Source: Aplysia californica
Lineage: Eukaryota
Assembly (NCBI RefSeq): GCF_000002075.1
Contig: NW_004798101.1
Location: forward strand, 62,001 to 126,000
Direction: 5' to 3'
Length of the DNA: 64,000 bases
In this document: one piece after another, positions 42,901 to 57,464 of the stretch
How the letters are laid out: each line of letters begins with the position of its first letter
Numbering within the stretch: the first letter of the stretch is position 1
Translations under genes and position numbers: made by a program
Notes under the pieces: model-generated
Told to the model about the DNA's origin: nothing
Databases searched by the model: none
Seen by the model: the letters and a program-made list of their open reading frames with translations, nothing else

Positions 42901-45900
42901 CTTAAAATCTACCGAATATAATACATCTTCACATGTTTACAAATGAAAAATACATATTTTAAAAACCTACAGCATTTTTTGTGAAGAGAATGTCAATAGT
43001 GGAAATTGCATTGATGGTCATTTTGACTTCCAGCGTCTTGTACTGTCTCTTCTCTCCTGGTTCCACTTCGCGAGTTGGCACCACAGGCTGGTAGTCCGCA
43101 GGGTAGAAAAACTTCCAGATCAGCTCTCTGTGAATATGGAACAGGCGGCAGAACTTAAAGCTAGATTCCCAAATGACTAATTTGTGCAAATGATGTTATA
43201 CCTTCACAGACATTTTTAATTTAGAGGTAACCATGCATATGAAAAGGCGCATAAATCTTATTTAGCAATTCAGCAATGTAGCCAACGATACATTATGCTA
43301 TTGTAATTAAAGTTTGAGTTTGAGAAAAGAGAAGGACATCAGCACAATTAACTTCACATAGTGCTGGGAAAAGGCAAGACAGACAAAAATGTAACAACCG
43401 AGGAAAAGAACTAAAATATGGCCTATCAGTAGCACCCTCTAACCACTCCCATAGCAAAATAATAAAATTGAAGTCCAATATACACATATATATTACATAA
43501 AACACACAAAACAGCCCACTGACCTGAAAATGGCATCAAAGTCAACAAAAGAAAGCAGAAAACAAAATAATTTATTTTCAAATAATTGTCAACAACAACA
43601 AAAAGTGCAAGGCAAATGGCAAAGGGATAGCAGAAGAATGAAGACAAAGTGATCAAGACATCCGTACCAAAGCTTTTAATGACAAACAAAACAAAACAAA
43701 GGAACATGGAAAGGTACAGTTGAGAGAAAACGATGCCGAAGAAAAGGTGGGCAAAGCATGATGTTCATTATATATAGCTAGCATGCTGATCCATGAATTG
43801 GGACGAGACGAAAATCAACAATATGATCGGATAAATAAATTTGACTTTTACTACTATAATTAACACCTGATGAAAAAATATCCACTTCTTCTATAACGCA
43901 GCTTCAGCAGCAACTGCAGAGGCAGAGAGTATTGTAATCACATTTTAATTGCAACAAATTCTCCAGACATAGTCTTTGGACCCAATACACTCTGAGAAAA
44001 ACTTTTCATACTTTTACACTTCAGTCCATTTATCTATACCATCATGCAAAAAGACAGCAGCTTGTATATGAAACAGCTTTCCACAGAATAAAGACCAAGG
44101 TCAACACAGAAATCATTCTACAGGCAGAAAGTCTTAGGTGTCTTAACCAACTTAAAGGCAAAGTGAGGCCATATGTAACTATAGCCTACTTAATTTGAGT
44201 AAAAAACATTTTGGTAAAGTTATGACCTAACCTTTGCCTATCAACCCATGGTCCATAATTGAAGTCAGTGTTTTTCCCACACTTGATGTCGACTCCAACA
44301 CACGGATACGTCCTTCTCACTAAAACCTCTCCATCAGCCATTTGGATCTGTTCAGGTTCATGTTGCACTATACCTGTAGGGTTTTTTTTTTAATGAAAAA
44401 TGAAAGTCATCAAATTATTCAGTTATTTCAAACTAGACAACCAGTTTTCCTTTAAGAGAATTTATCAAGACGCATGTATAGACAGAGGTTATTACCAAAT
44501 TTCACAATATCTTTACCCAAAGTTTCAGTAATCAAAATACAGGTATGTGGCTAGAGCTGGCCAAGGGTCTAACAAGCACTTAAAAACTACAGCAAAATTT
44601 ATACCTCCCAGTACAAGCACAAACATCAGCGTCGAATTAGAGAAGCGCTCTATCATTGGTAGTCAGAGTGATTAAAAAGAATCTTTCCCGCTTCACACAG
44701 ATTCAATCTTTAAAAGAAAATTAAAATGTCTGCCCTATTTCACTGACTATCCCCAGACAGATTCAATATTGATGGGATTCTGAAGTTTCAAAAAAACCTA
44801 AAAGAAGTTTCTGTCACTGCAAGTTGCAATAATTGTACTTTATTTTTCTCAAGTGTACATATTAGTACACACAACAACAACAAAAACTTTTTAACCAAGT
44901 GAAAATATTTTAACAGACATCCTTACAAACCTGGTTCATCTATGTAGAAGTACACATCAACAGAGTTTGACATTAAAACAACAAATCCCTCTCCCATGTA
45001 CCGTGGAGGTCTGAAACAAAGAATAAGACACATAATCAATTTTAAAATGCATCTTCGTGTAAGCACTATTTCAAACCTCATAGCAAATGTGTAATGATAC
45101 AGTTGAACCTTCCCTAACAGCCACCTATATAATACAGTCACATGTACATTCAGCCTCTTCCCCTGTTCCCCCTTGTGTGTGTGTGTGTTTGGTTTTTTTT
45201 ACAATATAATGATACTTTATATTAGTTGGCCACCTGTCTAGGATGTCCACTTTAATCCTCAACAATGGGTGGTCACCTTAGACAATTTCAACTGTACTCT
45301 CTTTTGAGTTTATGGGTTTGGGCCAATTTTCAAGGACAAGAAGGTGGTTGTAGAAAAAAAGAATTCCAATTAATTTTTATGTGGGTCACTGAGTGTAGTG
45401 GTTATGCTCATGTGTGTAGGATGTGTCATTTGCATATGTTGACCTTCTTACTGCGTGTCTATAAATTATAGAAGGAAGATTCTTTAAAAAACCATATGTG
45501 AATCTGATTCTATTTCTAATCAAAATAAAAATGCATTCAATTTTTCAAACTTTGTCTAAAACTTGAGCAATTTTACACCAGTTGCTATGGATGACAGCTA
45601 TACAAGAAGCATGACCTACTAGTTCATATTTTCACGGCTGTTCAGTTCTACCAGAGAGTTTGGTTCTACTATCCTTGCGGAGCACTTAGTTTAACACGTC
45701 CGCTGACCTGCGGGGGTCATAAATCCCACCTGACAGTCGGGCCGCGCATCGCTTCCTGGGCGATAGCGCTGTTAGCCGATTTCGGTTAGAAAGTCTGTAA
45801 TTTTCACTTGATTTAAAACCCTGTAAATGTCCTCTCTTATCTATCACTATGGGTGTGTGAGGTATCAAATGAAAGCTCAGATTCTCCTAAATAACCCGCA

Positions 45901-48900
45901 TCCTTTAGTTTGGTTCTACTTCTAATCGAGAACACACCCTGCCCCTGTACTTAACCCTACCTTGTGATGCACGTATTTCTCGGAATCCTCCAAAATCAGG
46001 ATTTTTTTCCATTCGTGAACTTCAGATTGTAACCAGTTTTTTATCTGCTGTATTAAGAGTCATTGAGGAGGTTATTTGTGAAAAAACTGTTTTGATTGGT
46101 TGGAAAACTTCAGCAGGACGGCGAGTTTTGTTACTTCACCCCGTAATATTTTCCCGGCCGCCGCGCTGCCCAACACGGTATTCACCCTGAGGTCCCGCTT
46201 TCACTTTCTGGGATTCTGTGTCGACACGTGTTACGAGAGTCTGCTACCAGAGTGAAAATGGAACACACGCGGGAACTACACCTTTGAGTGTTTAAAAAAT
46301 TGTGTAGAACGTGCAGGGCCAAAAGTCAAAAGGTTAAGAAGGCAAACTATGAGCAAATACTTTTGTGTAAATTTTAGAGAATGACGTACTCGTTCTCTAT
46401 CATGTGAACGTAGAGTGGGATAGTGCAGACACACATCCTGTACACTGTGCAACAAATGTGTAGGCCTACAGCGCATATACTCCTTAAAAATTTGAGAAGC
46501 AACCCTAGCTGCTGCACAACAACGTATTGAAGAAAATTGACACATATGGACACCTTTCGATCAAAATAAAACAGCAGGTTCTTGCCCTTTGCACACTTCA
46601 AAATAAAGATTGTATTAGAAAAGTACATGAAACACCATCTTGCTCAAAAGACCCACCAGAGCCTCCATCTGTTGAAACACCGACCCATGTAATTGCAGCA
46701 GACAAACAATCACATGAAATACTCAACAAACATCCATAGTAGATCAATCATCACTAGAAATATCTCCAGTAAACTCCCCACACAGATCTAACCCTAGAGA
46801 CCCCAGCCGCGACTTCAACACCCAAACGTACACAGAAAGAGTTCAAAGACAGTTTGAAGACATATCACTAGAGTATGCACTTCGAGACCTATTACACAAC
46901 CATTGTCTCATTTAGAAGAAACACCCGCTACACAAATGATACGCAGAAAACGTTACTCCTCGGCAGAGAAAAGAAAGGTACAGTTGAAATGGATTTGGCC
47001 TAGATCTAGGTGTAATGAGTGAGGAGGGTGGTGAACTTGTTCACTTCAGCATCGCAAAACTGGAGAAGAGGACAGTGGGAATTAAGGGAAAAGGGAAGCA
47101 GTTGAAATCTGTTACTGAAGGGAAAGAAGAAGAAGACAGCTAGCCTTTGAACTCAAAGACACTTTTGCATTTATTGTTATGAGTATTCATATTTGTTTTA
47201 GTGAAAAGTGAAAGCAGCTCTAGCTGTGAGAAGACAATGAGGCAATAACTCCTGTTTCATGAATTGGATAGCAGTGAACTTTCTACATGTTAACTATTTC
47301 TGCTTGAACTGTGAGGAAACAACAAAAAATCTCTCGTTTCATGAGCTGGACAGTAGTAAATCTTCTACAATTTCCACGTTTCTGAACCAATCGAACCAAA
47401 AGTAAGTGTTTCTGAAAGCTCATCATGTCACTGTTGTATACCACTGATTGTCTCATAGATCTGGGGTTCACATTTTAAAATATCGTAATTTTAAAAAGTA
47501 GACCCGCGTAAAAATTTCCATCAAAGTTGCCCTCAATTGCGGCGTGTTTTAAAGGGTGCCCAGCTATGAATATCAATAAAAAGTTATTTACTGTACAGTC
47601 CAAGAATGCCTCTATCTGTTGATAGTATTTTGACTTTGATTTGTCTGTGGGTAAAGCCACGATGACAATATCAAACTGTATAAAAATTGTTAAGTCACAA
47701 CAGTTCACTCGCAGAGCAAAGGTCAAAGTGACCTCGCTGACCACCCAGGCGCGGCATGGATGACCAGGTCAATTACTCAGGAAATTAAGTGCTACGCTCG
47801 GGAACAGTCGTGTTTTAAATGCAAACAAATAGTCACCAAGACATAAATAAATTCTTTGTCTCAAATGACTGGTTTTTTACCTAGATGTCAACATATCAAG
47901 TGGTTACTTATTTTAGACACAAATCGAATTCTTATTTGATCTATTTTCACTATTCTATAAATAGCAACACATATAGCATATTCCTGTTATTGCTAGAGAA
48001 GCCTCCGTTTGGCTCCCAGACATCACTAATTGAGAAATATAGATGTATATTTGTGCTCTGGCTCCATAATTTATTATTTACAGCTTGTAGGTGATCAAGA
48101 CGACACTCAAATAGAGCAATTTGAGCAAAATGCAACTCATTTTAATATATGGAAAAAACATTCTTTTCCCCATTTTTTTTTTTTTTTTTTTTTTTTGGCT
48201 AATTCATCAGAATCAAGTCTGAAACTTTAGGTAGAAGCATTAAATAAACCAGGTAAATTTGACAGAAACATAAGACTTGCAGCCACCCAAAACCATCACA
48301 CACTGTTGCAATCTTACTGTAAAAAATCTGTTGAGAGTGAAGTGGAATAACAAAGAGCAAATAAAATTTTGAGTACGCTAAGATTAATGAGGTGCTCACA
48401 GAGGCAGTAACCTCTTTTTTTATATTTGGGAAGTGTCATAGACTGCACGGGAGGAACAATCTTAGATGTCAAGACCATGATCGGAAAAGCAAAGGAGGGC
48501 ATTTCAACAGTTTTTTTGAAGATCAGGAAGCATTACGACAATTTCAAAGATCAGGATTTTCAATACTGATGTAAAAAGTGCATTGTTATACTGATCAGAT
48601 ACATGAAAAAGTAACAAAATTGATAGCCAACAAATTACAGTTTTTCGTTAATGGTTGCCTGAGGAAGACCATAAAAATTCACACGGGCCAGACCTTATAA
48701 AAAATGCAGCACAATGGAGGAAAACCACACAACAACCAACTGACAGGGAGATCAAGAAAAGAAGACGGAATCCCTAAGAGAGGGGGAAGAGAGCAAGGCC
48801 TAGTTCCACCTGGGAACAAGATCTGGAGGCAGATCTCAGGCATATGGGGCACAGCTGGCTGGAGGTGGAGACAATCACCAAGAACAGAAACAGGTGCAGA

Positions 48901-51900
48901 GCCTTCTTTGGCAGCATATACCCAGTACCGGGGTGAAAGAGGCAGATGATGATAAAACGACACGAAATTTTGTTTCAGGAGACTTTTGCATAGGCATCAT
49001 CTCATCTAAATAAAATATTACAAAGATGAAACCTCTTTTCTCTATTGCTTTAATCTCTTCTCTCATATGTGACAGAGTTCATCTCAGATGTCACATTTTA
49101 ATGGTGATTCAAAAATAAATCATATTCTTTAAAAACTTTCTTTAAAAAAGTTTTTGGGTTTTTTTGGAGACTACATTTGCTATTCCAGTCAACCTTACCA
49201 GTAAAAGCATTATGTAAACAGTAGGCAGCATGAAATAGTGAGATAGAAAATGCACATTCCCTTTTCATGCTTGAAATACCAGACAAAAAATGGCGGTCAG
49301 TATGTGAAGTTAACAAACACAATAATTACCACATTTTTCTAAAGAACAGAATTTAAAAAACCAGAATCATTGAAAAGAAATACAAAGAACTGGCTAAACT
49401 CAGGCGGTTTTGAACTTCCCCTCCACAAAATTAAAACCAATACAAATATAACCACAAGTACTCACTCATCCTGCACTGGTCCGTTATACTTGGGGCTGGG
49501 CACCAGCATGAGGCGCACTGTCTCCATGTTACACTTGACTGTGTGCATGAACAAGTCAAACACTGTGGAGGCCGGCTTGGTGGTGTACACCATATTGGCT
49601 TTGTCAAACTTGAACAGGAAACTGTACGGCATCAAGTAGTTTCCAAATATCACACGGCCCTGAAAGAAGAGAGAGACTATCAGTTTTCAGAAAAGAAACA
49701 CATCCTTTCATTTTAGCCTAAACATACCAATCAGAACAGCTTAAACTATTTTTGACCATCTTTTGATCTTTATCACAAACCAGTCACCTAATGTAAACAA
49801 TAACTTGTTCTTTTATTCTATCTGTCACATCACCTTGCAAAAAAAACGTAAAACTTTTCAGAAATCCAAGTAGTTTGTGTCCTCTTACTAAACTTCTCAG
49901 ACAAATTCATCACTCTCTTTTCTTTTTCTTTCTTAGTAAGGGGGGGGGGGGGGGGTTGCTCTTATTGAGGGCAGAGGGGGGAGGGGGAGTAAATAATCTT
50001 TTTTAAAAACAACTTACAGAAGAAATTTCAATTTTTGTAACAGGAACTAAATCTCTCCAATGAACATCTAACAATCTGGGGAGAGAAAAAAAAACATTCT
50101 TTGATATGATGAAGGTAAAGAGTACAAAACAGTGCATACATATTGTCACATGTCTCATGCAGAAAAAGCCAAGGTAGACAACTTCTCAAAGTTGAAAGTT
50201 TAAAAAATGGTAATCAACACCGCAAGACATCGTGAAAAGAAAGCATTTAGTTCTTTATAAAAGGTCTTTATTATGAGCTTCATCCGAAATCACATTCAGC
50301 ATTACAACATAATTCACTTATAAACTTTGTTTTCTTATATTTAATGTCAGTTTTCAATAAAAAGGAGCGTAAAACACATAAAGCATATTAAAAATAACTT
50401 GTTCAATAAGCAAACAAAATCTATAACCACTTTTAACCAAAACATATCGCTCACAAAGGCACTTGATTATTCCTTGCAGTCCTCCCCTCAATTTCAATAA
50501 AATAAATAAGCCAATAAGTTCAGAACTCTTTTTCTTATTAACAATTAGTTTTCCCATTAAGACATGAAAACAGCACGCGGGCTCTCGTGGCCTAGAGGTT
50601 AAGGTGTTAGCCTCTCGTTCAAAGGTCCCGGGTTCGAATCCGGGTAGCGACCGAAAAATTTTCTTCTCTAAAATTGTCTCCTTTCACCTCCTTTCCTGCT
50701 CTCTAGCAATGTTCTGTTGTCTGCTTTCAATTCCACTTTCTGTCCCCACCCCCTCACCTCCTTTGCCCCCTCCTCTGGGCTCCTGACTCTTTCTGCAGCC
50801 TTTCTACTGCTACTCCTTGGCCCCTCCTTACTGCTGTCTTTCTGCCACACCCCTGAACTTCTGGTAGGAAAGATCTACACCTAGCCTTCTCGGACAAGGG
50901 CGAAAAATCTCGGAGGGCCCGTGTGCAAGTTGCGCACGTTAAAGATCCCTTGGTGGTCTAAAATCGATAAGATAGGCTTCAGCCGCCACCCGGAAAAATT
51001 CAAAATTTCCTACCAACTGAAAATATTAGGTGTGTCCCGCGCGCTCATATGACCTATGCAGTTGCGAGCGCCGTAAAACACTTTACAAAAACAAAAAAAC
51101 AAACGAAAACAGCACACCTGAACATAAATTCTATAATGTCACAGAAACTATGACATTTATTCTCAGCGATAAAGATCCAATTTAAAAGAAAAAAGTGGAC
51201 ATCACTACAGTCTAATCATACATACGAGTTTTTCTTTGTCACAGCAGGCTCTCCTTCTTCTTCCACTTCTTCCTCTTCTTGAGCCATCCCGAACAATTTT
51301 TCTAAGCGTGTATAGACTTGTGACCGATTGTACACATGAAACTCAAAGCCATCTAGAGAAAGATTCATCCTTGTCTTCAAGTGGGACAGATCTGAAACCA
51401 ACCGCAACAATTCTTTTTTCAATACTGCATACAAACATTACTTCATCCTTTCAAATATTTTTTAGGCAATGCAATTCAAACCTACCCACTACAAGTATAC
51501 TTTCATTTATTCCCATCAATAAACAACGAGAGGGTAAGGGGATTCTCAAGCATTAAAATGAGGGCAATTCTTCCAAACCACCATTACAGCTGTTGTGACA
51601 AGTACACATCTGGTCAACATGAAACTTTTAAAAATCAAATTTGAGAGAATGTACGGGTCGTGTACAGTGAAACTCAGATATAACAAGCTGTCAGCCCTAG
51701 CCTTCAATTTCGTTGAATTCAAGTGTTCGTTATAGCAATGTGGGTAATAAGTTGCAGTTTAGTATAGGGTCTAGCATACAGAAAAGTTTGAAGCTACAAA
51801 CAGACATGCAATTCATTATGTAGTTCTATGTTTAAGCAAGCCTATAACTGTTAAGTGGTAGGGGAGGGGGGTATGATTGTGACGCTTCTGGTGACAACTG

Positions 51901-54900
51901 GAATGCCTGTGCCTACATTCCCCCCCCCCCCTTTCCCCTAGACACATGCAGTAACAGCCACAAAATCGTCCATCCAGCCTCTCCCAACCCCGAGACACGT
52001 TAAATATATCATGTCTCGTGCGTGAGTCAACAACGCACGTGTTGGTATGATTGGTTGTATCAGATGTACGCAAAGGTCTAGGCTAAGCATGTAATGATCC
52101 ACAGTGCATGTGCCATCCATGGTTTCTTGGAACACAGTACTGCCATAAGCTGATAAAACACCTTTTTTTTTATTTTGGCGTCAAATTTTTTTTAACCTAA
52201 ATCAAAAGCCTGATCAGTTACCCTATTTATGTCAAAAAAGCAAAGTCAAACTGTGACTGGTTATTATTCAAATTTCGGAATCGCTCTATTTTTAAATGGT
52301 TATGCTGACAAAAAAACTTTTTTCTGAAACTTCTGTGAAAAAAAAGGCATTTTGTTAGCTTACAGCAGAGTAGCCAAGACTTGTTGGAGGAGAAAAATAC
52401 ATGAAGAAACATCTGAAGGGTTTGTTCGCTCCACAAACGACTTCGTTGAAATCAAGTTTGCTCATTTATGTGTTTGCTGAATCCAAGTTATTGTGTTGAT
52501 TTTTAATGAAAGACAAAATTCAGAATCCATCTCCTCCTTTTGAATCTGAGTTCTTTGTATCAGAGTTTACTGTATAACACAAACAGCTAAGCTAGACTAC
52601 CTTGGAGCAGAAGAAAACGCAAAATTTAAAACTGGAAATGCACAATGTTATACAGACAATGTTCCTTGAATTAAAATATCTTTTTACTCACAAGCCAAAA
52701 AAAGTTTGAAAGGGAAGTCTATTTAACTCTTTCCGGACGTATCGCCGATATATCGGAGCGAGTCCACACACCTTGCGGACATATCGCCGATATGTCGGAT
52801 GTGATAGGGTGCCTCAGCATTGTTTCCTTTTAACATGATCCATCACTTATAATTACTTTTTATTGTTATTGAAAACTTGGAAAGGATTTAGGAAACGAAA
52901 ATATCTAGTTTCATTTTGTTAAAATGTTGGTTTGGAGAAAAACGAGAATTAGTTCTTGCGGTCTTGCATCAACAAAGCAATTTAACCAGACTCAGTATAA
53001 ATATCATAACAAAAAAAAAAATTGGAATATTGCTTTCAAATAAAAAGCTGTGCATTCAGAAAGTTATGGATTATGCTCTTGGCCAGTATATGATAAGACA
53101 GCTAAGCTGATTTGCATTCACATGTTTGGTGAAAGTAATTTTTTCCGTCAAAATTTATTTTTCTCATCGCCCTTGCCATTTCTAACCCCTGTAATGCATA
53201 ATGTTCATAATTAATCCTTGTTTCATATTGGAATGTATTCTTAATTCCATTTCCTTCAATTTGATATATCATGTTACGTTTTGAGTGATGGTTATGTCAT
53301 ATAAAGTTATTTTGTACACCACCTGTGTAGCCAAATCAAGCCACAAGTGAATTACGTCTAGACCCCCAAAAAACTACGTCCGAAAAGAGTTAAATTACCA
53401 CTTCACTTAGATGAAATAACATTAAAAGAGCCTTGATGTGTACCTTCAGTAAGCTCTTTGTAGACATAGGGCCGCCACCACCTAAATATAAGCCAGCCAT
53501 ACTCCACCCGCACAGAGAAGTCTTCAGTGATCAGGTGAACATCACGGAACATGACTTTCCCAGACAAAATAGAGAAGGAAAATGACCCTGGGGAAAACAA
53601 AACACTTCATTTATGTGGATCACATCAGAGACAAATCTAAAAAAAAAAAAACCTTCCTTTCTATTCAATACAGTAATGACACAGAGCTAAAGTTGTTGTA
53701 TGTATGAACATTAATCATTCTTCTTGGCCCTTTAATATTTTTTCTTACCAACTTAAAATATCTGAATCCCCATTGTGGACACAAATGCATTATCACAGTC
53801 CTCAGTACCCAGTTTGAAGAACGTCAGAGTACAAAGACACAAAGGCTCCTATAGACAGGCTCTTTGTTAATAAACATGCAGCAAAAGCCAAAATGTGAAG
53901 TAGTTACTTTGTTTCCAAACATTTTTAAATCCCTTCTATCTGTGAAATGATGAAGAGTTTTTAACAGCAATAAACGGGGCTTGCGGATTGTTTCAGAGTC
54001 TCCAGGATTTCTTTCTTTTTCTTGTTGACACTTAAGTTTTGTTTATAAACTATATAGCTTTATTTATAAATGTAAGGACTTTAAAATTTCACACAAATGG
54101 CAGACAGAAAAAACTATGAAACTTGCAATTATTTTTGTTATTAAAAACTTTAATTTCAAAGTTTGATATTCTCAAAAAAGCATTTAGTTAATTTGCAAGT
54201 TTTTTTCACACACCATATTTTTTTTAATTCACCAGTCAAAAATTTGGAAAACTGAAACAGGTTGTGTTTTGATATTACTACAAACAACTGGCAGCTTAGA
54301 CAGCTGGTATTCATAATATGTATCATGACGCTGTGGAATCTGGTGCTCGTCAATTTTTGGGCATGTGGAGTAATTGGTATCATCTTAAACCTTGATGATC
54401 CTTTTAAAAAATTTGACAGGTCCCAACTTTGAAGCCCCCCCCCCCCCAGAAGAACAAAAATCAATAAAGTAAGGTTTAAAACATCTAGCTCTTTACAATA
54501 TCTTAGATAAGAAAAATTAGAAAAGGCGTAATTAAAGTAGTCACTATACTTTCAAAGTGATCTTTTACAATAAAATTTCTGTTATTGTTACTACTCATAT
54601 TTCTGAAACAGACTTTGTTCCCATGACAACAAGTAGTTACATGTGTTTAAGTGACCAATGAAACATCATTTTTTTTACACTAGAGTCGAACCCGTGTAAG
54701 ACAGCCACCCAATGTAAAGGAGAAAAGTGGCTGCCCTTGACAAGTGGCCATCATGGTAGGTTCGACTGTAATCTATTTACTATAACAATCTATGTAACAC
54801 TTTTTCACTGGTTAAAAAAGAAATAGGCCAAGCACCAATCCCCTTTCAGAATTGATAAAGCACTAGCACACATTCAAAAGTGAGGCTCTAACCACAGACT

Positions 54901-55675
54901 GATGTGCTCATAGACAAGCACATTAGCACACCTTACCCTGCCACAAAAGAAATAGTTGTTAAATTTCTTTGAAATGTGGGCGGTTGTTGGCAAAGCAGGA
55001 ACAAACCATCATTATACATGACCTACTATCACTTACCAAGCTGGATGTGTCCATATTTGACCAATTTGTTCAAAATGGCAGTGATGATGAGGCCCAAAAC
55101 TCTACTGTTGTAGTATGTCAAATAGATCGTCCATGCCTGGGCAGCCACTATGGCGATAAGCATCCAGTACACAGTGGACTGTGGCAGTTCATTGTCCAAC
55201 CTAGATGTGTTACAAAGAGAGAATTCCAAATAAAAAGACAACCGGTATATGCCACTGCAATAAAACACCCCCCCAAAATAACCCAAAAAATTATTTTGAC
55301 CAGCCTGCAAAGAAATTTACTCTGTTCCAGATCAATGATCAGCAGACCTTCCAAAACTGAAAGTTATGCTTATAAAACAACTACTAGAATATCACACAGA
55401 TCAGCCAAAATGGCCGAAGTAAAAATATTTACAAAACTATTTTTACTTTGTTAAGACAGCAACATTCTAAAGCAATTTTTTTTGCATTTTCAGCTATTAG
55501 AGTAACTAGTATTAAGAGCATAATATGTCGGAGGAATTTCAATTCAAACAGGTTTATACAGCCATGCTCCTCAAAAAAACTTTACATTACAATTTTATAT
55601 ATCTTTTGAGCATTCAAAAAATTGGCTTGAAGATTCTCACCTATCAAATATTGATTCGTTATTGGATGCCTTCAT
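416..55675 (-). CDS. BLTP1: Bridge-like lipid transfer protein 1 (KIAA1109/Tweek/LPD-3 orthologue), 5' part, 48 coding exons, continues beyond the left edge
   Basis: The spliced peptide has recognisable BLTP1 blocks: N-terminal TM helix followed by YYNSRVLG, SFSFSILSGKVMFRDV, FEFHVYNRSQVY, WRDLVPV, EPPRYMGEGF, YGPWVDRQR, WKFFYPADY, LSGLQVRGHAMFS, TLEYGWLIE, TKRLWFLW, CGCLGGC. All 47 introns are GT-AG with matching phases. Total 9037 nt. Confidence 0.95.
1205..1535 (-). mobile_element. Older copy of the CORE-like SINE
   Basis: Reverse complement shares TTGTGTCCTT..GGCACTTT..AAATTTTCCTCACTT..CAGGTG with the 39600 copy; degenerate tRNA head; GTAAAGCGC..GAG tail. Confidence 0.75.
1943..2095 (-). 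CDS. BLTP1: BLTP1 coding exon 47
   Basis: Open frame, CAG/GTATG, phases 1/1. Confidence 0.8.
2429..2689 (-). CDS. BLTP1: BLTP1 coding exon 46
   Basis: TPQCWRHLYQLLELYATMPEPKTV; phases 1/1. Confidence 0.9.
3206..3612 (-). mobile_element. Short non-tRNA retroposon, copy 1
   Basis: 11-bp TSD ACAAATTTTTG; collinear with 6830-7225; 3' tail shared with the SINE at 50577. Confidence 0.8.
3741..3951 (-). CDS. BLTP1: BLTP1 coding exon 45 (low complexity)
   Basis: Open frame, CAG/GTGAG, phases 0/1. Confidence 0.8.
4358..4533 (-). CDS. BLTP1: BLTP1 coding exon 44 (low complexity)
   Basis: Open frame, CAG/GTAAG, phases 1/0. Confidence 0.8.
5430..5637 (-). CDS. BLTP1: BLTP1 coding exon 43
   Basis: VLTMVGNVKETRGELK...; phases 0/1. 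Confidence 0.87.
5951..6022 (-). CDS. BLTP1: BLTP1 coding exon 42
   Basis: INLLVNCHAIRQNVDMALLRLAHQ; phases 0/0. Confidence 0.9.
6680..6797 (-). CDS. BLTP1: BLTP1 coding exon 41
   Basis: FDVNVSLKDVVDF...KPSTLQ; phases 2/0. Confidence 0.87.
6830..7225 (-). mobile_element. Short non-tRNA retroposon, copy 2
   Basis: Collinear with copy 1 and has the same C-run 5' end; possible TSD GTTGACA. Confidence 0.8.
8211..8455 (-). CDS. BLTP1: BLTP1 coding exon 40
   Basis: ILFKPVLQSLGL...AFQCE; phases 0/2. Confidence 0.9.
9251..9467 (-). CDS. BLTP1: BLTP1 coding exon 39
   Basis: EDLYQWMAKQQ...QLADAQ; phases 2/0. Confidence 0.9.
10654..10872 (-). CDS. BLTP1: BLTP1 coding exon 38 (not in ORF track)
   Basis: AKRGVGATDSP...HSILKNR; phases 2/2. 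Confidence 0.83.
11937..12277 (+). repeat. About 340-bp near-identical direct duplicate of 14234-14573
   Basis: Direct alignment, about 8 differences counted by eye. Confidence 0.92.
12424..12587 (-). CDS. BLTP1: BLTP1 coding exon 37
   Basis: AEGGITQRSG...DFHSAES...; the GTATGT donor gives the phase 2 needed downstream. Confidence 0.82.
13296..13439 (-). CDS. BLTP1: BLTP1 coding exon 36
   Basis: SRRSIRPYNVSF...; CAG/GTGAG; phases 0/0. Confidence 0.85.
14234..14573 (+). repeat. About 340-bp near-identical direct duplicate of 11937-12277
   Basis: Direct alignment. Confidence 0.92.
14664..14897 (-). CDS. BLTP1: BLTP1 coding exon 35
   Basis: LTPLSHTLQEDPSNQL...KGILALMRQWK; phases 0/0. Confidence 0.93.
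15370..15550 (-). CDS. BLTP1: BLTP1 coding exon 34
   Basis: LDWNLLSTASPAIDAWLNPSDRL; phases 2/0. Confidence 0.93.
16082..16793 (-). CDS. BLTP1: BLTP1 coding exon 33 (712 nt)
   Basis: GFIMCECGLEDV...LKTIWFNFASPP; the AAG acceptor was chosen because it alone gives the long frame in phase 1. Confidence 0.85.
17395..17639 (-). CDS. BLTP1: BLTP1 coding exon 32
   Basis: HIHVQLRRL...LLTAIPEQFSRVQF; phases 2/1. Confidence 0.9.
18325..18458 (-). CDS. BLTP1: BLTP1 coding exon 31 (not in ORF track)
   Basis: VAIDGAKEP...; CAG/GTAAG; bridges phase 0 to phase 2. Confidence 0.82.
19412..19564 (-). CDS. BLTP1: BLTP1 coding exon 30
   Basis: INICVLQASIVEEVI...VSLLAVCID; phases 0/0. Confidence 0.9.
20256..20478 (-). 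CDS. BLTP1: BLTP1 coding exon 29
   Basis: YVEAVTPTLSKLHPS...LPK; phases 2/0. Confidence 0.9.
20808..20945 (-). mobile_element. Related retroposon 3' end
   Basis: Same GCGCTCATATGACCTTATGCAGTTG.GAGCGCTGTAAAAC tail plus an AAAACT-type repeat; left end clear, right end approximate. Confidence 0.7.
21208..21313 (-). CDS. BLTP1: BLTP1 coding exon 28
   Basis: KTTAVVQLSGSLDVLVTPLLLEAWQR; phases 1/2. Confidence 0.9.
22721..22811 (-). CDS. BLTP1: BLTP1 coding exon 27 (not in ORF track)
   Basis: KPSPTSIAADLFNV...; needed to bridge phase 0 to phase 1. Confidence 0.8.
23309..23503 (-). CDS. BLTP1: BLTP1 coding exon 26 (not in ORF track)
   Basis: DWASTGP...WTPHFLKVKDGFSVNVMK; phases 0/0. Confidence 0.87.
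23673..24290. other. N runs (others at 13902-14034 and 33010-33163), probably masked simple repeat or gap
   Basis: TG-rich flanks and a 6-nt CATGTG island inside the run. Confidence 0.7.
24389..24816. mobile_element. MITE family copy 1 (copy 2 at 30560-30946, inverted end fragment at about 54318-54410)
   Basis: Shared TGGTGAAATCAGG, CTGAAACCAGGCGACCCCACC and AAAATTGACGA..CTGATTC..CATGACAC; the two ends are imperfect inverted repeats. Confidence 0.7.
25086..25399 (-). CDS. BLTP1: BLTP1 coding exon 25
   Basis: GFEADED...NLHSHMDLPITESPLLLSCYSQHL; AAG acceptor, GTGAG donor; phases 1/0. Confidence 0.85.
26397..26675 (-). CDS. BLTP1: BLTP1 coding exon 24 (Ser/Pro-rich)
   Basis: Open frame, CAG/GTAAG, phases 1/1. 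Confidence 0.85.
27180..27386 (-). CDS. BLTP1: BLTP1 coding exon 23 (low complexity)
   Basis: Open frame, CAG/GTGAG, phases 1/1; acceptor is a CAGTAG NAGNAG. Confidence 0.8.
28088..28286 (-). CDS. BLTP1: BLTP1 coding exon 22
   Basis: VCKDGSDPGFGQSLL...; phases 0/1. Confidence 0.88.
28649..28861 (-). CDS. BLTP1: BLTP1 coding exon 21
   Basis: QDRFLRLHDNKTKRLWFLW...CGCLGGCVFFG; phases 0/0. Confidence 0.93.
30048..30260 (-). CDS. BLTP1: BLTP1 coding exon 20
   Basis: VHPVRLAHCNLH...WLEAG; phases 0/0. Confidence 0.92.
30560..30946. mobile_element. MITE family copy 2, embedded in (TA)n/(CA)n microsatellite
   Basis: Collinear with 24389-24816. Confidence 0.7.
31994..32239 (-). CDS. BLTP1: BLTP1 coding exon 19
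   Basis: LQNIAEFLQ...CPSSEDVKYQMTR...LVESGSAL; phases 0/0. Confidence 0.92.
34690..34866 (-). CDS. BLTP1: BLTP1 coding exon 18
   Basis: HLRDGHLALSGLQVRGHAMFS...TLEYGWLIE; phases 0/0. Confidence 0.94.
35040..35272 (+). mobile_element. RTE-like LINE 3' fragment; a further tail fragment at about 35875-35930
   Basis: Similar to 48770-48953 (TCCACCTGGGAA..AGATCTGG..GCA.ATCTCAGG); GATGATGATG tail. Confidence 0.65.
35510..35647 (-). CDS. BLTP1: BLTP1 coding exon 17
   Basis: ...CP...ERLCFELDKSFKETKLQLLLSP; phases 0/0. Confidence 0.92.
36094..36288 (-). CDS. BLTP1: BLTP1 coding exon 16
   Basis: ENYLGEYQ...YRPFSVTVSVTLHDIQAHL; phases 0/0. Confidence 0.92.
36939..37299 (-). CDS. BLTP1: BLTP1 coding exon 15
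   Basis: NGWVDCWS...FDP...PSVLVLYGSLLRNLLHLK; phases 2/0. Confidence 0.92.
37785..37951 (-). CDS. BLTP1: BLTP1 coding exon 14
   Basis: GETAYCRLYLPESNT...WRNVTLK; phases 0/2. Confidence 0.9.
38811..38908 (-). CDS. BLTP1: BLTP1 coding exon 13 (not in ORF track)
   Basis: AHVAFCGELLDLCVTFDFSDFMP...; phases 1/0. Confidence 0.9.
39100..39394. mobile_element. TTAA-flanked MITE (Kolobok-like termini)
   Basis: TTAA-GGGGGCTCG ... CGAGCCCCC-TTAA. Confidence 0.72.
39600..39873 (+). mobile_element. tRNA-derived SINE with CORE-like domain
   Basis: A box TGGCCTAGTGG, B box GGTCCGAATCC, GTGTCCTTGGGAAAGGCACTT motif, (ATT)n tail, TSD ATTTCTG. Confidence 0.85.
40379..40534 (-). CDS. BLTP1: BLTP1 coding exon 12
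   Basis: DLIDDWSSKAAPDIYTFIPYTW...NWVDTSSQHQEN; phases 1/1. Confidence 0.93.
41413..41530 (-). CDS. BLTP1: BLTP1 coding exon 11 (not in ORF track)
   Basis: FDLSVGYPREWNACQEWYLDLTACKA...FFS; phases 0/1. Confidence 0.92.
42344..42514 (-). CDS. BLTP1: BLTP1 coding exon 10
   Basis: TQAIHMNAGKGSYVEVTIPW...; phases 0/0. Confidence 0.93.
42971..43127 (-). CDS. BLTP1: BLTP1 coding exon 9
   Basis: ELIWKFFYPADYQ...TIDILFTKNA; phases 2/0. Confidence 0.93.
44232..44373 (-). CDS. BLTP1: BLTP1 coding exon 8
   Basis: ...CGKNTDFNYGPWVDRQR; phases 1/2. Confidence 0.93.
44931..45010 (-). CDS. BLTP1: BLTP1 coding exon 7
   Basis: EPPRYMGEGFVV...DEP; phases 2/1. Confidence 0.93.
45633..47812 (+). mobile_element. 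Decayed Chapaev/N-RAG-TP-like DNA transposon
   Basis: Termini CACGGCTGTTC...GAACAGTCGTG, TIR similarity continuing through GCGnAGCACTTA, TTTT on both flanks, internal decayed Cys/His domain. Confidence 0.65.
46258..46600 (+). pseudogene. Frameshifted RAG1-N-terminal-like (Chapa-type) zinc-binding domain
   Basis: MEHTRELHL*VFKKLCRTC / LYHVNVEWDSADTHP / LCNKC / IWTPF...SCPL, spread over three frames with stops. Confidence 0.65.
48415..48953 (+). mobile_element. 5'-truncated decayed RTE-clade LINE end
   Basis: Peptide remnants YLGSVID.TGG..DVK..IGKA, IRIFN..VKS.LLY, KLQ.FVN.CLR and RP.STW; (GAT)n tail. Confidence 0.75.
49466..49659 (-). CDS. BLTP1: BLTP1 coding exon 6
   Basis: GRVIFGNYLMP...LVPSPKYNG; phases 0/2. 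Confidence 0.93.
50018..50075 (-). CDS. BLTP1: BLTP1 coding exon 5 (not in ORF track)
   Basis: LLDVHWRDLVPVTKIEISS; CAG/GTAAG; needed to bridge phase 2 to phase 0. Confidence 0.9.
50577..51104 (+). mobile_element. tRNA-derived SINE with Nin/Deu-like central domain
   Basis: A box TGGCCTAGAGG, B box GGTTCGAATCC, GCACGTTAAAGATCCC motif, A-rich tail, 11-bp TSD GAAAACAGCAC. Confidence 0.88.
51226..51391 (-). CDS. BLTP1: BLTP1 coding exon 4
   Basis: DLSHLKTR...FEFHVYNRSQVY; phases 1/2. Confidence 0.92.
51665..52572. mobile_element. Tc1/mariner-pogo type non-autonomous element
   Basis: TA-CAGTGAAACTCAGATA ... TATCAGAGTTTACTG-TA. Confidence 0.65.
52727..53389. mobile_element. piggyBac-type MITE
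   Basis: TTAA TSD; TIRs CTCTTTCCGGACGTA / TACGTCCGAAAAGAG (1 mismatch). Confidence 0.8.
53444..53587 (-). CDS. BLTP1: BLTP1 coding exon 3
   Basis: SFSFSILSGKVMFRDV...WLIFRWW; phases 1/1. Confidence 0.93.
54681..54770. mobile_element. Mini pogo/Tigger-like MITE; relatives at about 22868-23040 and 15737-15898
   Basis: TAGAGTCGAACC ... GGTTCGACTGTA; TACAGTCGAACC at 22868; shared GTCCAAGAC.GC.ACC.ATTG core between the two longer copies. Confidence 0.6.
55037..55200 (-). CDS. BLTP1: BLTP1 coding exon 2 (N-terminal transmembrane anchor)
   Basis: LDNELPQSTVYWMLIAIVAAQAWTIYLTYYNSRVLGLII...; TAG acceptor, GTAAG donor. Confidence 0.93.
55641..55675 (-). CDS. BLTP1: BLTP1 coding exon 1 (MKASNNESIFD-R); exon extends as 5' UTR to about 55886
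   Basis: CACCATGA Kozak-like start with an in-frame upstream TAA; AG|GTGAG donor; phase 2 matches the next exon. Confidence 0.75.
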
Positions 55676-57464
55676 GGTGATCCAATGGAAGTCCCAACAG
55701 CACCGGGCTTGCAACGTAGTTTTATCAACTTCAACAGAAAACGGCACTGACAAACTCCTCCAAAAAGGCAATTCTTAGTCCATTGCCTTTGTACATTGTA
55801 ATCAATTTACTTTGAAGTCACTTTCATCAACTGTTTCTTCCATTCCTCAGTTGAACCTTCAAATCCATCCATTGCCTTTTTTGCTACTGGAGACAAAAAA
55901 ATAAACATTCTTGAAGACACATCAATGTCTGTTTAGTTTGCCACTTCTCTATTTCCTGATAATTATTCACCTGCGGTGTAGCGATACCTACAGGGTACTT
56001 TTTAAATGTTAAAAAAATGTACTTTTCTACTAATATTTCACATAGAGAGATTACAATTGACACTTTTTGTTATGAATCACACATGGCACCAAAAGGTGGC
56101 AGAGGACAAAAGACAAAAAAAACACGATAATATTATGATTTGACAGAAAATGGCCGAAGTCTACAACTTTATAAAATAAATGTTAATGCCCAAGTTTTCA
56201 TTCATTTATTTTTGTTGTATCATAAAGTGAGTGTCTTATCACACAAGGCACAGTCAGGAATATCAAATCCATTAGACACTCAAAGGGTACTCAAACTAAA
56301 TTTTTTTAAGTTGCCAACACAGTTGTCTTCACCTTAGATCCTAGAGCTTAGGAGAAAGAAAAATTAAGGATCTTCCAATTGTGAGTCTCAAGAATTTAGT
56401 CGATCCCATGTGCTCCTCCTCTCAATCTCAACTGTCCAAAATCCCATCTAGTGCAAACATTGCACCCACCCAGAGAGATTTTAAACGGAGTTGCGATTGC
56501 ATTCATGAGCGTGTTTGACCTGTGACTCGAAGCGCAGTACAATGATTACAAATTTTATCTTCTTGGTTGATCAGCTTAGCATGCCTATGTTTTTGTTCAG
56601 TAAATTTCTGATATGAAATATGGCATCCGGGCCAATATTAGTCCCTTCAAAGCAGGATCTTACAGATGAATTCTGTATTGTAAATATTGTTTTCTTAAAA
56701 CAGCAGAATCTTTCGAAGAATCCGGATCACAGACTGTGGGATCTTAGGCAGAGACCACTGTACCTACGAGAAAACATTCCAGGGGTAATTTCCACAAGTG
56801 TCCATTAAACCAAGAGGCACCAAAATTGTGGACTATTGCATCACTTAAAATGTAGCTTTTTGATCAGGAGTTCAGAATCTCCCCATGTCCATCGCAAAAA
56901 AGGTAATCTCGGAGTGTGTCAAAGTAACTGAAGTGTTTCTTTCAACGTAAACAATCTCACTTGAGTTGCATTTTCACTTTAAAGAATCAGGCCAATTCAT
57001 CCATGTTGCCTTTAAGTTATTTATACCATGAAAAGCTTGTTACTCTCACACTCAGTGACCCAGTCCCATCAATGAACAGGGTGTCTCAAAAGTCACCAGA
57101 CTGTACTGCAGTGTGCTTGTATACACAAAATACGTCAGGTTGCATTGTTCCCAAAACAATTCATATATATCTATGTTGTTGAGAACAGAAAGAGAGTGTG
57201 ACGGCACTGCACAGCTCAGCCAATCAAAAACAAATGTAACTAACTAGAAAAAAATGCAGCTTGTGCTAATATTAATTAAATAATTGTGCACCCCCTAAAC
57301 TGAAGAAGTGGTAATGATATCCTACCATTTTCATTTGTCATTAAAACTCAGGCAGTCAGAATTGATTTCTCATATATTTTCCGGAACACCCATAATTAAA
57401 TTTGCACTATCATTTACAGTTCAATAAGTTTTTGTATCAATTGATTACTTTAGATCTAGATCTA

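Follow-up and report, generated by a model that had tools for sequence, protein, structure and literature searches.

One-turn asymmetry between the two ends of a transposon has been published for some Transibs (PMC1131882), for AanRAGL and subgroup I Transibs (PMC9435367) and for PflRAGL-A (PMC10462144), and a 2021 review has only some Transibs sharing 12/23-type asymmetry with RAG (PMC8355894). In RAG1, a dimer of the nonamer-binding domain (NBD) pivots and so accommodates one 12 spacer together with one 23 spacer (PMC10462144). How the 12/23 rule arose is debated, and Chapaev transposons lie outside the Transib/RAG clade yet carry the RAG1 N-terminal zinc domain. Here we compare with these systems an element at 45633..47812 of a 64,000-nucleotide stretch of the Aplysia californica genome (contig NW_004798101.1, positions 62,001 to 126,000, forward strand; hereafter the window), in which an earlier note had seen an intronic, internally deleted transposon of Chapaev type with a fossil domain like the RAG1 N-terminus. 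The element is almost certainly an internally deleted copy of a Chapaev cut-and-paste transposon. The two ends of its family are offset by about one helical turn, and we think it likely that a RAG1-like transposase reads this offset, so that a left end is paired with a right one.

The family of the window element is sister to the published Chapaev-1, -2 and -3_ACa, whose suffix stands for Aplysia californica, and is a separate family of this known Chapaev type. All share a Chapa domain, the absence of a RING domain, a single DDE gene, CAC ends and a 4-bp target-site duplication (TSD) (PMC4411706), and copies of the Chapaev-1_ACa and -3_ACa types also have the end geometry of the window family where both ends are found. 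Chapaev3 is like the window family in its CAC ends, Chapa-type domain and CMC/CMCT core motifs but differs in having a 3-bp TWA TSD and a length of 1.8–1.9 kb, against a 4-bp TSD without target consensus and parents of 3.8–4.1 kb here (PMC3014272). RAG1 with its recombination signal sequences (RSSs), RAGL-A, AanRAGL and the asymmetric Transibs share with the window family and its sisters a CAC end, a bipartite terminal inverted repeat, one-turn asymmetry and, as predicted for a sister transposase, the core fold, the asymmetry being 11 for RSSs and 10 for PflRAGL-A, with spacers of 4/13 in AanRAGL against 4/15 in the window family (PMC1131882, PMC10462144, PMC9435367). The window family differs from RAG1, RAGL and Transib in its 4-bp TSD, in lacking RAG2, RING, an A-rich nonamer and GRPR, in its type II zinc ligands and in very low identity. 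In the Drosophila P element the distances from terminal repeat to transposase site are 9 and 21 bp, a similar left-right difference of about one turn, although this element belongs to another superfamily with a THAP domain, an 8-bp TSD and a structural Z score of only 11 (PMC7776569). The word 'chapaev' is absent from PMC10462144, PMC9435367 and PMC7204232. N-RAG-TP, a sea-slug element, has by its description only RAG1-N-like sequence, and the deletion derivatives of the window family look like this; here the N-only form arises repeatedly by deletion of a full Chapaev. Panchin and Moroz in 2008 reportedly compare these ends with RSSs, and they or Repbase Reports may already show one-turn end asymmetry in Chapaev, of which our literature searches found no report.

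A DNA search of this genome (G000) with the window element gives 63 matches, and 31 distinct complete copies (the window copy included, three duplicate loci dropped) are delimited by the same two termini, so the element is not a chance pattern. The TSD is exactly 4 bp in 24 of these copies, 3 bp in one (at a TTTT site) and 5 bp or more in none, and the target sites have no consensus. CAC...GTG is kept, with 27–30 of the 30 other copies having the expected base at each of the three outermost positions on either side. Chapaev TSDs are 4 bp long, and this length also flanks eight sister elements located by end match together with TSD. We place the family in Chapaev and in neither Chapaev3 (3-bp TWA TSD) nor Transib/RAGL (5-bp TSD); TSD length is labile in some Transibs, and a range of 2–4 bp is given for CMC (bioRxiv 2026.08.26.747230).

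The only full-length copy of the window's own family, L032 (contig C52), is 3,996 bp long and has the same ends as the window copy. Its reading is split over four broken frames, and no intact parent was found in this genome; three further core-bearing loci of the family are partial. In this parent the encoded Chapa domain is followed by a Ser/Thr/Pro linker and by a core that has the motifs GGDHG, FGDYD, CLWC, PPYLH, PKQH and GEQGGE. In Pfam it matches DUF1280 (E 1e-11) and, below the curated cut-offs, PF12560 (E 1.4e-4) and zf-AD (E 4.6e-4), and the best PDB sequence match of its Chapa domain is RAG1 NZD 21wb at E 0.29. The window copy is 89.5% identical to the parent and lacks parent positions 1371–3126 (1,756 bp), which removes the NBD-like segment described below and most of the catalytic core. 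Thirteen of the 31 complete copies have this deletion to within about 50 nt and 14 a second one (parent ~905–2783), three differ, and one is the parent itself; the long copies L031, L033, L039, L050 and L052 are long because of inserts without a match in the parent. The 12 copies of the window subfamily differ by 8.8% on average, and the window copy is 7–8% diverged from most siblings, as the siblings are. Since breakpoints are shared at many loci, each with its own TSD, the deleted forms appear to have spread in trans. As a separate observation, both independent deletions leave elements of ~2.1–2.2 kb and a sister family has a derivative of 2,024 bp; a preferred size is possible.

Among the 83 matches of a protein search of this genome, twenty stretches were fetched and contain at least nine further families. 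Those at L084–86, L087 and L090 match, by eye, the Chapa domains of Chapaev-1, -2 and -3_ACa in the supplement of PMC4411706. The Chapa domain of the window family is 29–35% identical to such copies and its core 40–41% identical to Chapaev-1 and -3 copies, and in a 33-row tree without a Transib/RAG outgroup the family falls among them. Its zinc ligands are two N-terminal His and a C-terminal CxxC, with no W-x-P-H, which in our own reading of the published scheme would make the family and its sisters type II, a form called less RAG1-like than type I; RING-bearing (type I) subgroups have the RING after Chapa and a His before the last CxxC (bioRxiv 2026.01.24.700457). There is no RING in L032, L081 or the intact sister protein P0001. 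None of six full-length elements of 3.8–4.1 kb has an opposite-strand open reading frame (ORF) of at least 120 aa, and so none has a RAG2-like gene; the L084 element contains one ORF only. The Chapaev catalytic-core motifs are present in L032 and P0001. The core of the full-length relatives, which the earlier note had left to be decided, is Chapaev-like by parent motifs, DUF1280 and tree, and its assignment of the element to an internally deleted member of such a family, like its expectation that the two termini would recur together, agrees with the TSDs, the parent and the 31 copies.

The two ends of the window family are built alike: a spacer separates an outer block of 11 bp from an inner block of 15 bp. 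All 37 exact pattern matches have a left spacer of 15 nt and a right spacer of 4 nt (the control has no match), and so do nearly all of the 30 other complete copies; a looser end pattern, with 106 matches against 59 in its control, was dropped. The inner block ends in TTAG, which starts 24–25 nt from the right end and 33–36 nt from the left. The left/right starts are 36/25 in the window family and family B, 34/24 in C, Chapaev-1, D, F and G, 33/24 in E and 34/25 in Chapaev-3, an offset of 9–11 bp in nine of the nine families of this genome with both ends, and the long spacer is always on the left. Five of them (window family, B, Chapaev-1, D and E) were delimited without TTAG. The cores of elements with the offset are 29–70% identical, and the spacers are not conserved between families. 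As background, TTAG stands in the two slots at 9 and 8 of 736 CAC sites, and an offset scan against shuffles gives 9–11 with p <= 0.033 in 10 of 12 pairs. In the 12 nt that precede TTAG, left and right ends of a family agree at 6.7 positions, against 4.0–4.4 between families (permutation p 1.5e-4): the inner block varies jointly at the two ends, with the offset unchanged. The places of the RSS nonamer, positions 20–28 and 31–39, read AGCACTTAG at both ends of the window family and are unlike a nonamer. A Chapaev-2-like family has a right end at 24.

Apart from this, the inner 19 nt of the window family's right end match the left end of a sister element (L082:6615) at 18 of 19 positions and the right end of that element at 12 of 19, and the right end of the window family looks as if it had been remade from a left end minus exactly 11 nt.

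Of 27 metagenome loci examined for ends, 21 have no usable end. In L105 and L109 a terminal match alone revealed both ends, close to the tips of the contig and with an offset of 10 in each. Candidate TTAG sites lie at 34/25 in L102; the left end of L107 has its site at 35, the right ends of L106 and L124 have theirs at 24, and that of L118, at 33, cannot be assigned to a side. The Chapaev at L109:62-5197 bears a RING; its Chapa domain is type I-like, with W-x-P-H, its inner block is different and its core is 29–38% identical to the others. In the divergent relative at L126:4518-4628 a candidate right end occurs three times in tandem with a 55-nt period.

Modelling of P0001 from 83 of 108 available sequences gives a predicted local distance difference test (pLDDT) score of 86.6. 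The model matches RAG1 cores in Foldseek with E 2e-16 and RAG1 structures with Z 27–29 (VIA Z up to 29.4, with root-mean-square deviation (rmsd) 3.4 and 453 residues aligned); Z is 24.9 with BbRAGL, 24.7 with HzTransib and 11.2 with the P element. Identity within these structural alignments is only 12–16%. Several RAG1 alignments run from model position 301 to RAG1 391–409, in the NBD, with rmsd ~8. P0001 is thus predicted to fold like the RAG1 core, with an NBD-like three-helix segment just ahead of it that we liken, on a weak match, to the RAG1 NBD. Folded alone (18 sequences, predicted template modelling (pTM) score 0.35), the segment was compared with 48,161 chains, among which the RAG1 NBD-DNA structure 3gnb ranks second (Z 4.9, rmsd 3.7, 62 of 68 residues) and further RAG1 chains stand at ranks 4, 7 and 28. 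It contains a conserved PRK (R in 55 of 64 rows). Foldseek on the isolated segment, including a second look, finds nothing relevant, and the score of 0.00 from a dimer prediction in which the alignment was not used speaks neither way. Neither the core nor profile A1 finds RAG1 by sequence in the PDB. PF12940 (RAG1) is silent in G000 and in the controls alike, and its silence is therefore uninformative.

The window copy itself is non-coding and, as a copy, ordinary debris, although the finding is real and was correctly read by the earlier note. Its ends, 45633 CACGGCTGTTC ... GAACAGTCGTG 47812 with TTTT on either side, and its length of 2,180 bp are as that note gave them, as is the frameshifted peptide from the ATG at 46258, which starts MEHTRELHL*VFKKLCRTC and whose motifs are spread over three frames (YHVNVEWDSADTHP in frame +1, LCNKC and WTPF...SCPL in frame +3). 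The SCPL read there is an artefact, because an 11-nt deletion at 46584/46585, which interrupts the last CxxC of the Chapa relic, cuts the parent's CPVC. The note had also seen neither a DDE core nor a RAG2-like gene; the second point stands, while of the core a tip is retained with the third catalytic residue E, the only catalytic motif left. There SEEGGE corresponds to the parent's GEQGGE (46994–47098, 77% identity over 35 aa). The left spacer is 33 nt instead of 15 because of a private 18-nt insertion, absent from all 30 other complete copies and spanned by contigs from three other samples with few differences. With this insertion and the substitutions in the right blocks the end geometry is lost, and the copy is likely to be immobile now. 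Its features are as follows.

45629..45632, no strand: left TSD copy TTTT (sequence; family-wide 4-bp TSD in 24 of 31 copies)
45633..45643, + strand: left end, outer 11-bp block CACGGCTGTTC (sequence, family comparison)
45644..45676, + strand: left spacer, 33 nt here and 15 nt in the family (family comparison)
45677..45691, + strand: left end, inner 15-bp block GCGGAGCACTTAGTT (inverted pair with right end, family comparison)
46258..46600, + strand: frameshifted relic of the Chapa zinc domain (H-x4-H, CxxC, CxxC, W; type II ligands) (translation, parent alignment)
46601..46985, + strand: relic of the Ser/Thr/Pro-rich linker, stopping just before the parent's KTRGQP motif (parent alignment); the linker is disordered in the model of the sister transposase
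46985..46986, no strand: deletion junction, parent 1371–3126 gone (parent alignment)
46986..47113, + strand: C-terminal transposase tip, third catalytic residue E at 47033–47035 (parent alignment; motif place from intact sister)
47783..47797, - strand: right end, inner 15-bp block, two substitutions in this copy (sequence, family comparison)
47798..47801, - strand: right spacer, 4 nt, 11 less than the family's left spacer (family comparison)
47802..47812, - strand: right end, outer 11-bp block, one substitution in this copy (sequence, family comparison)
47813..47816, no strand: right TSD copy TTTT (sequence)
45013..49461, - strand: host intron of BLTP1/KIAA1109, approximate limits (predicted from homology)

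The likely explanation of the end geometry is that a transposase dimer would hold the outer CAC blocks at its active sites while the NBD-like segments, by analogy with the RAG1 NBD, would contact the inner blocks and swing so as to accommodate a long spacer together with a short one, with the result that one long end is paired with one short end; strand transfer with a 4-nt stagger would then give the 4-bp TSD, and the deleted copies would have been moved in trans. In this model the NBD-like segment is the likely reader of the inner block, and by the same analogy the offset probably serves as a pairing rule, a role of which we are somewhat less sure than of the reading as a whole. Several observations weigh against it. 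The NBD match is weak, with Z under 8 and an unrelated chain ranked first, though in the whole model the segment is collinear with the RAG1 NBD ahead of the core; the glycine-arginine of the RAG1 GRPR is missing before PRK, and the inner block is not an A-tract nonamer. The ends of four of the nine families (C, F, G and Chapaev-3) were picked with a TTAG filter; of these F and Chapaev-3 have a 4-bp TSD, G matches at three of four bases and C has none. Two of the 12 scanned pairs are off, L102 with an offset of 4 (p 0.08) and L100 with 17, the latter because of a 7-nt insertion not present in four other copies. For the Chapaev-2-like family the offset analysis located no left end, the metagenome ends lack a TSD, and at L110 a TTAG at 25 lies upstream of the ORF, on the wrong side. 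As the families share ancestry, the nine of nine count as one conserved trait and not as nine events.

The same Chapaev identity is compatible with a different use of the ends, in which the inner block is read by the Chapa zinc domain or by a host bending or transcription factor, or the offset is helical phasing that puts both sites on the same face, without a rule for pairing a long with a short end. The weak NBD match favours this, as does the similar 9/21 spacing that P elements reach with an unrelated THAP domain (PMC7776569), and a full-turn difference is also allowed by simple phasing; phasing would however permit equal spacers, which no family has, the long one being always on the left, and the NBD-like segment sits exactly where that of RAG1 does, ahead of the core, so that we regard this account as rather unlikely. 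It is very improbable that the window family belongs among the RAG-like (RAGL/Transib) transposons or provides a direct missing link to RAG, despite its asymmetric ends, its RAG1-N-like domain and a predicted RAG1-like fold that scores better against RAG1 (Z up to 29.4) than against HzTransib (up to 24.7). The TSD is 4 bp and never 5 (0 of 31), there is a single gene and, in six full-length elements, no opposite-strand ORF of at least 120 aa, there is no RING, the ligands are of type II, the structural alignments are at 12–16% identity, the core and profile have no RAG1 sequence match in the PDB, and the sisters are published Chapaevs. The hope expressed earlier that intact relatives would bear on the origin of RAG is thus disappointed as to a missing link and borne out through the end geometry. 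That the copy is a domesticated or exonised piece serving BLTP1 is scarcely credible. Both of its junctions are seen in contigs of samples S2, S3 and S5 and no empty-site joint is found in four contig sets, a result that shows presence of the insertion only, whereas several frameshifts and stops run through the Chapa relic, the divergence from most siblings is like that of the others, and the copy lies antisense to BLTP1 in an intron.

The preferred reading, of paired ends one turn apart read by a RAG1-like transposase, goes beyond what the earlier note had seen, and its added value is the conserved 12/23-like end geometry of Chapaev. A broader proposal, which we hold tentatively and somewhat doubt, is that Chapaevs follow a 12/23-type rule in which ends one helical turn apart are paired by a transposase that has an NBD-like domain and the RAG1 fold but no RAG2, and that N-RAG-TP is a deletion derivative of such an element, not a separate donor of the RAG1 N-terminus. 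If true, asymmetric synapsis would predate the split of Chapaev from Transib/RAG, the 12/23 rule would have arisen before RAG2 and before the Transib/RAG lineage, and Chapa, NBD, core and asymmetric ends would already have been combined in the common ancestor; such a rule for Chapaev would not yet be in print. An intact Chapaev-1-type transposase of 937 aa in this genome would allow direct testing of the pairing rule. The copies of this Chapaev-1_ACa type (L084:2768-6872, L085:2685-6792 and L086) are 98.5–99.3% identical; uninterrupted ORFs of ~937 aa are found in L084 and L086, and the two ends together with a 4-bp TSD in L084 and L085, and from these sequences the family appears young and is possibly active.

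The intronic placement given earlier agrees with homology-predicted BLTP1/KIAA1109 exons on both sides, 49462–49662 matching PF20413 positions 209–275 and 44923–45012 matching 274–303. In three raw RNA runs and one contig set the depth over the element is 0–3 (raw), and there is likewise none over the BLTP1 exons. An Rfam scan of 43000–56000 of the window found nothing. At 50575–51100 of the window there is a tRNA-headed repeat with A and B boxes by eye, likely a short interspersed nuclear element (SINE) with no Rfam match, where RNA coverage is very deep from its many copies. Elsewhere, at L099:1099-5903, the ends of three Chapaev elements of two families are nested within 5 kb, and the 'amine oxidase' label on the sea-slug transposase homologues P0009, P0025, P0032, P0039, P0066, P0069 and P0090 is by alignment an annotation error.

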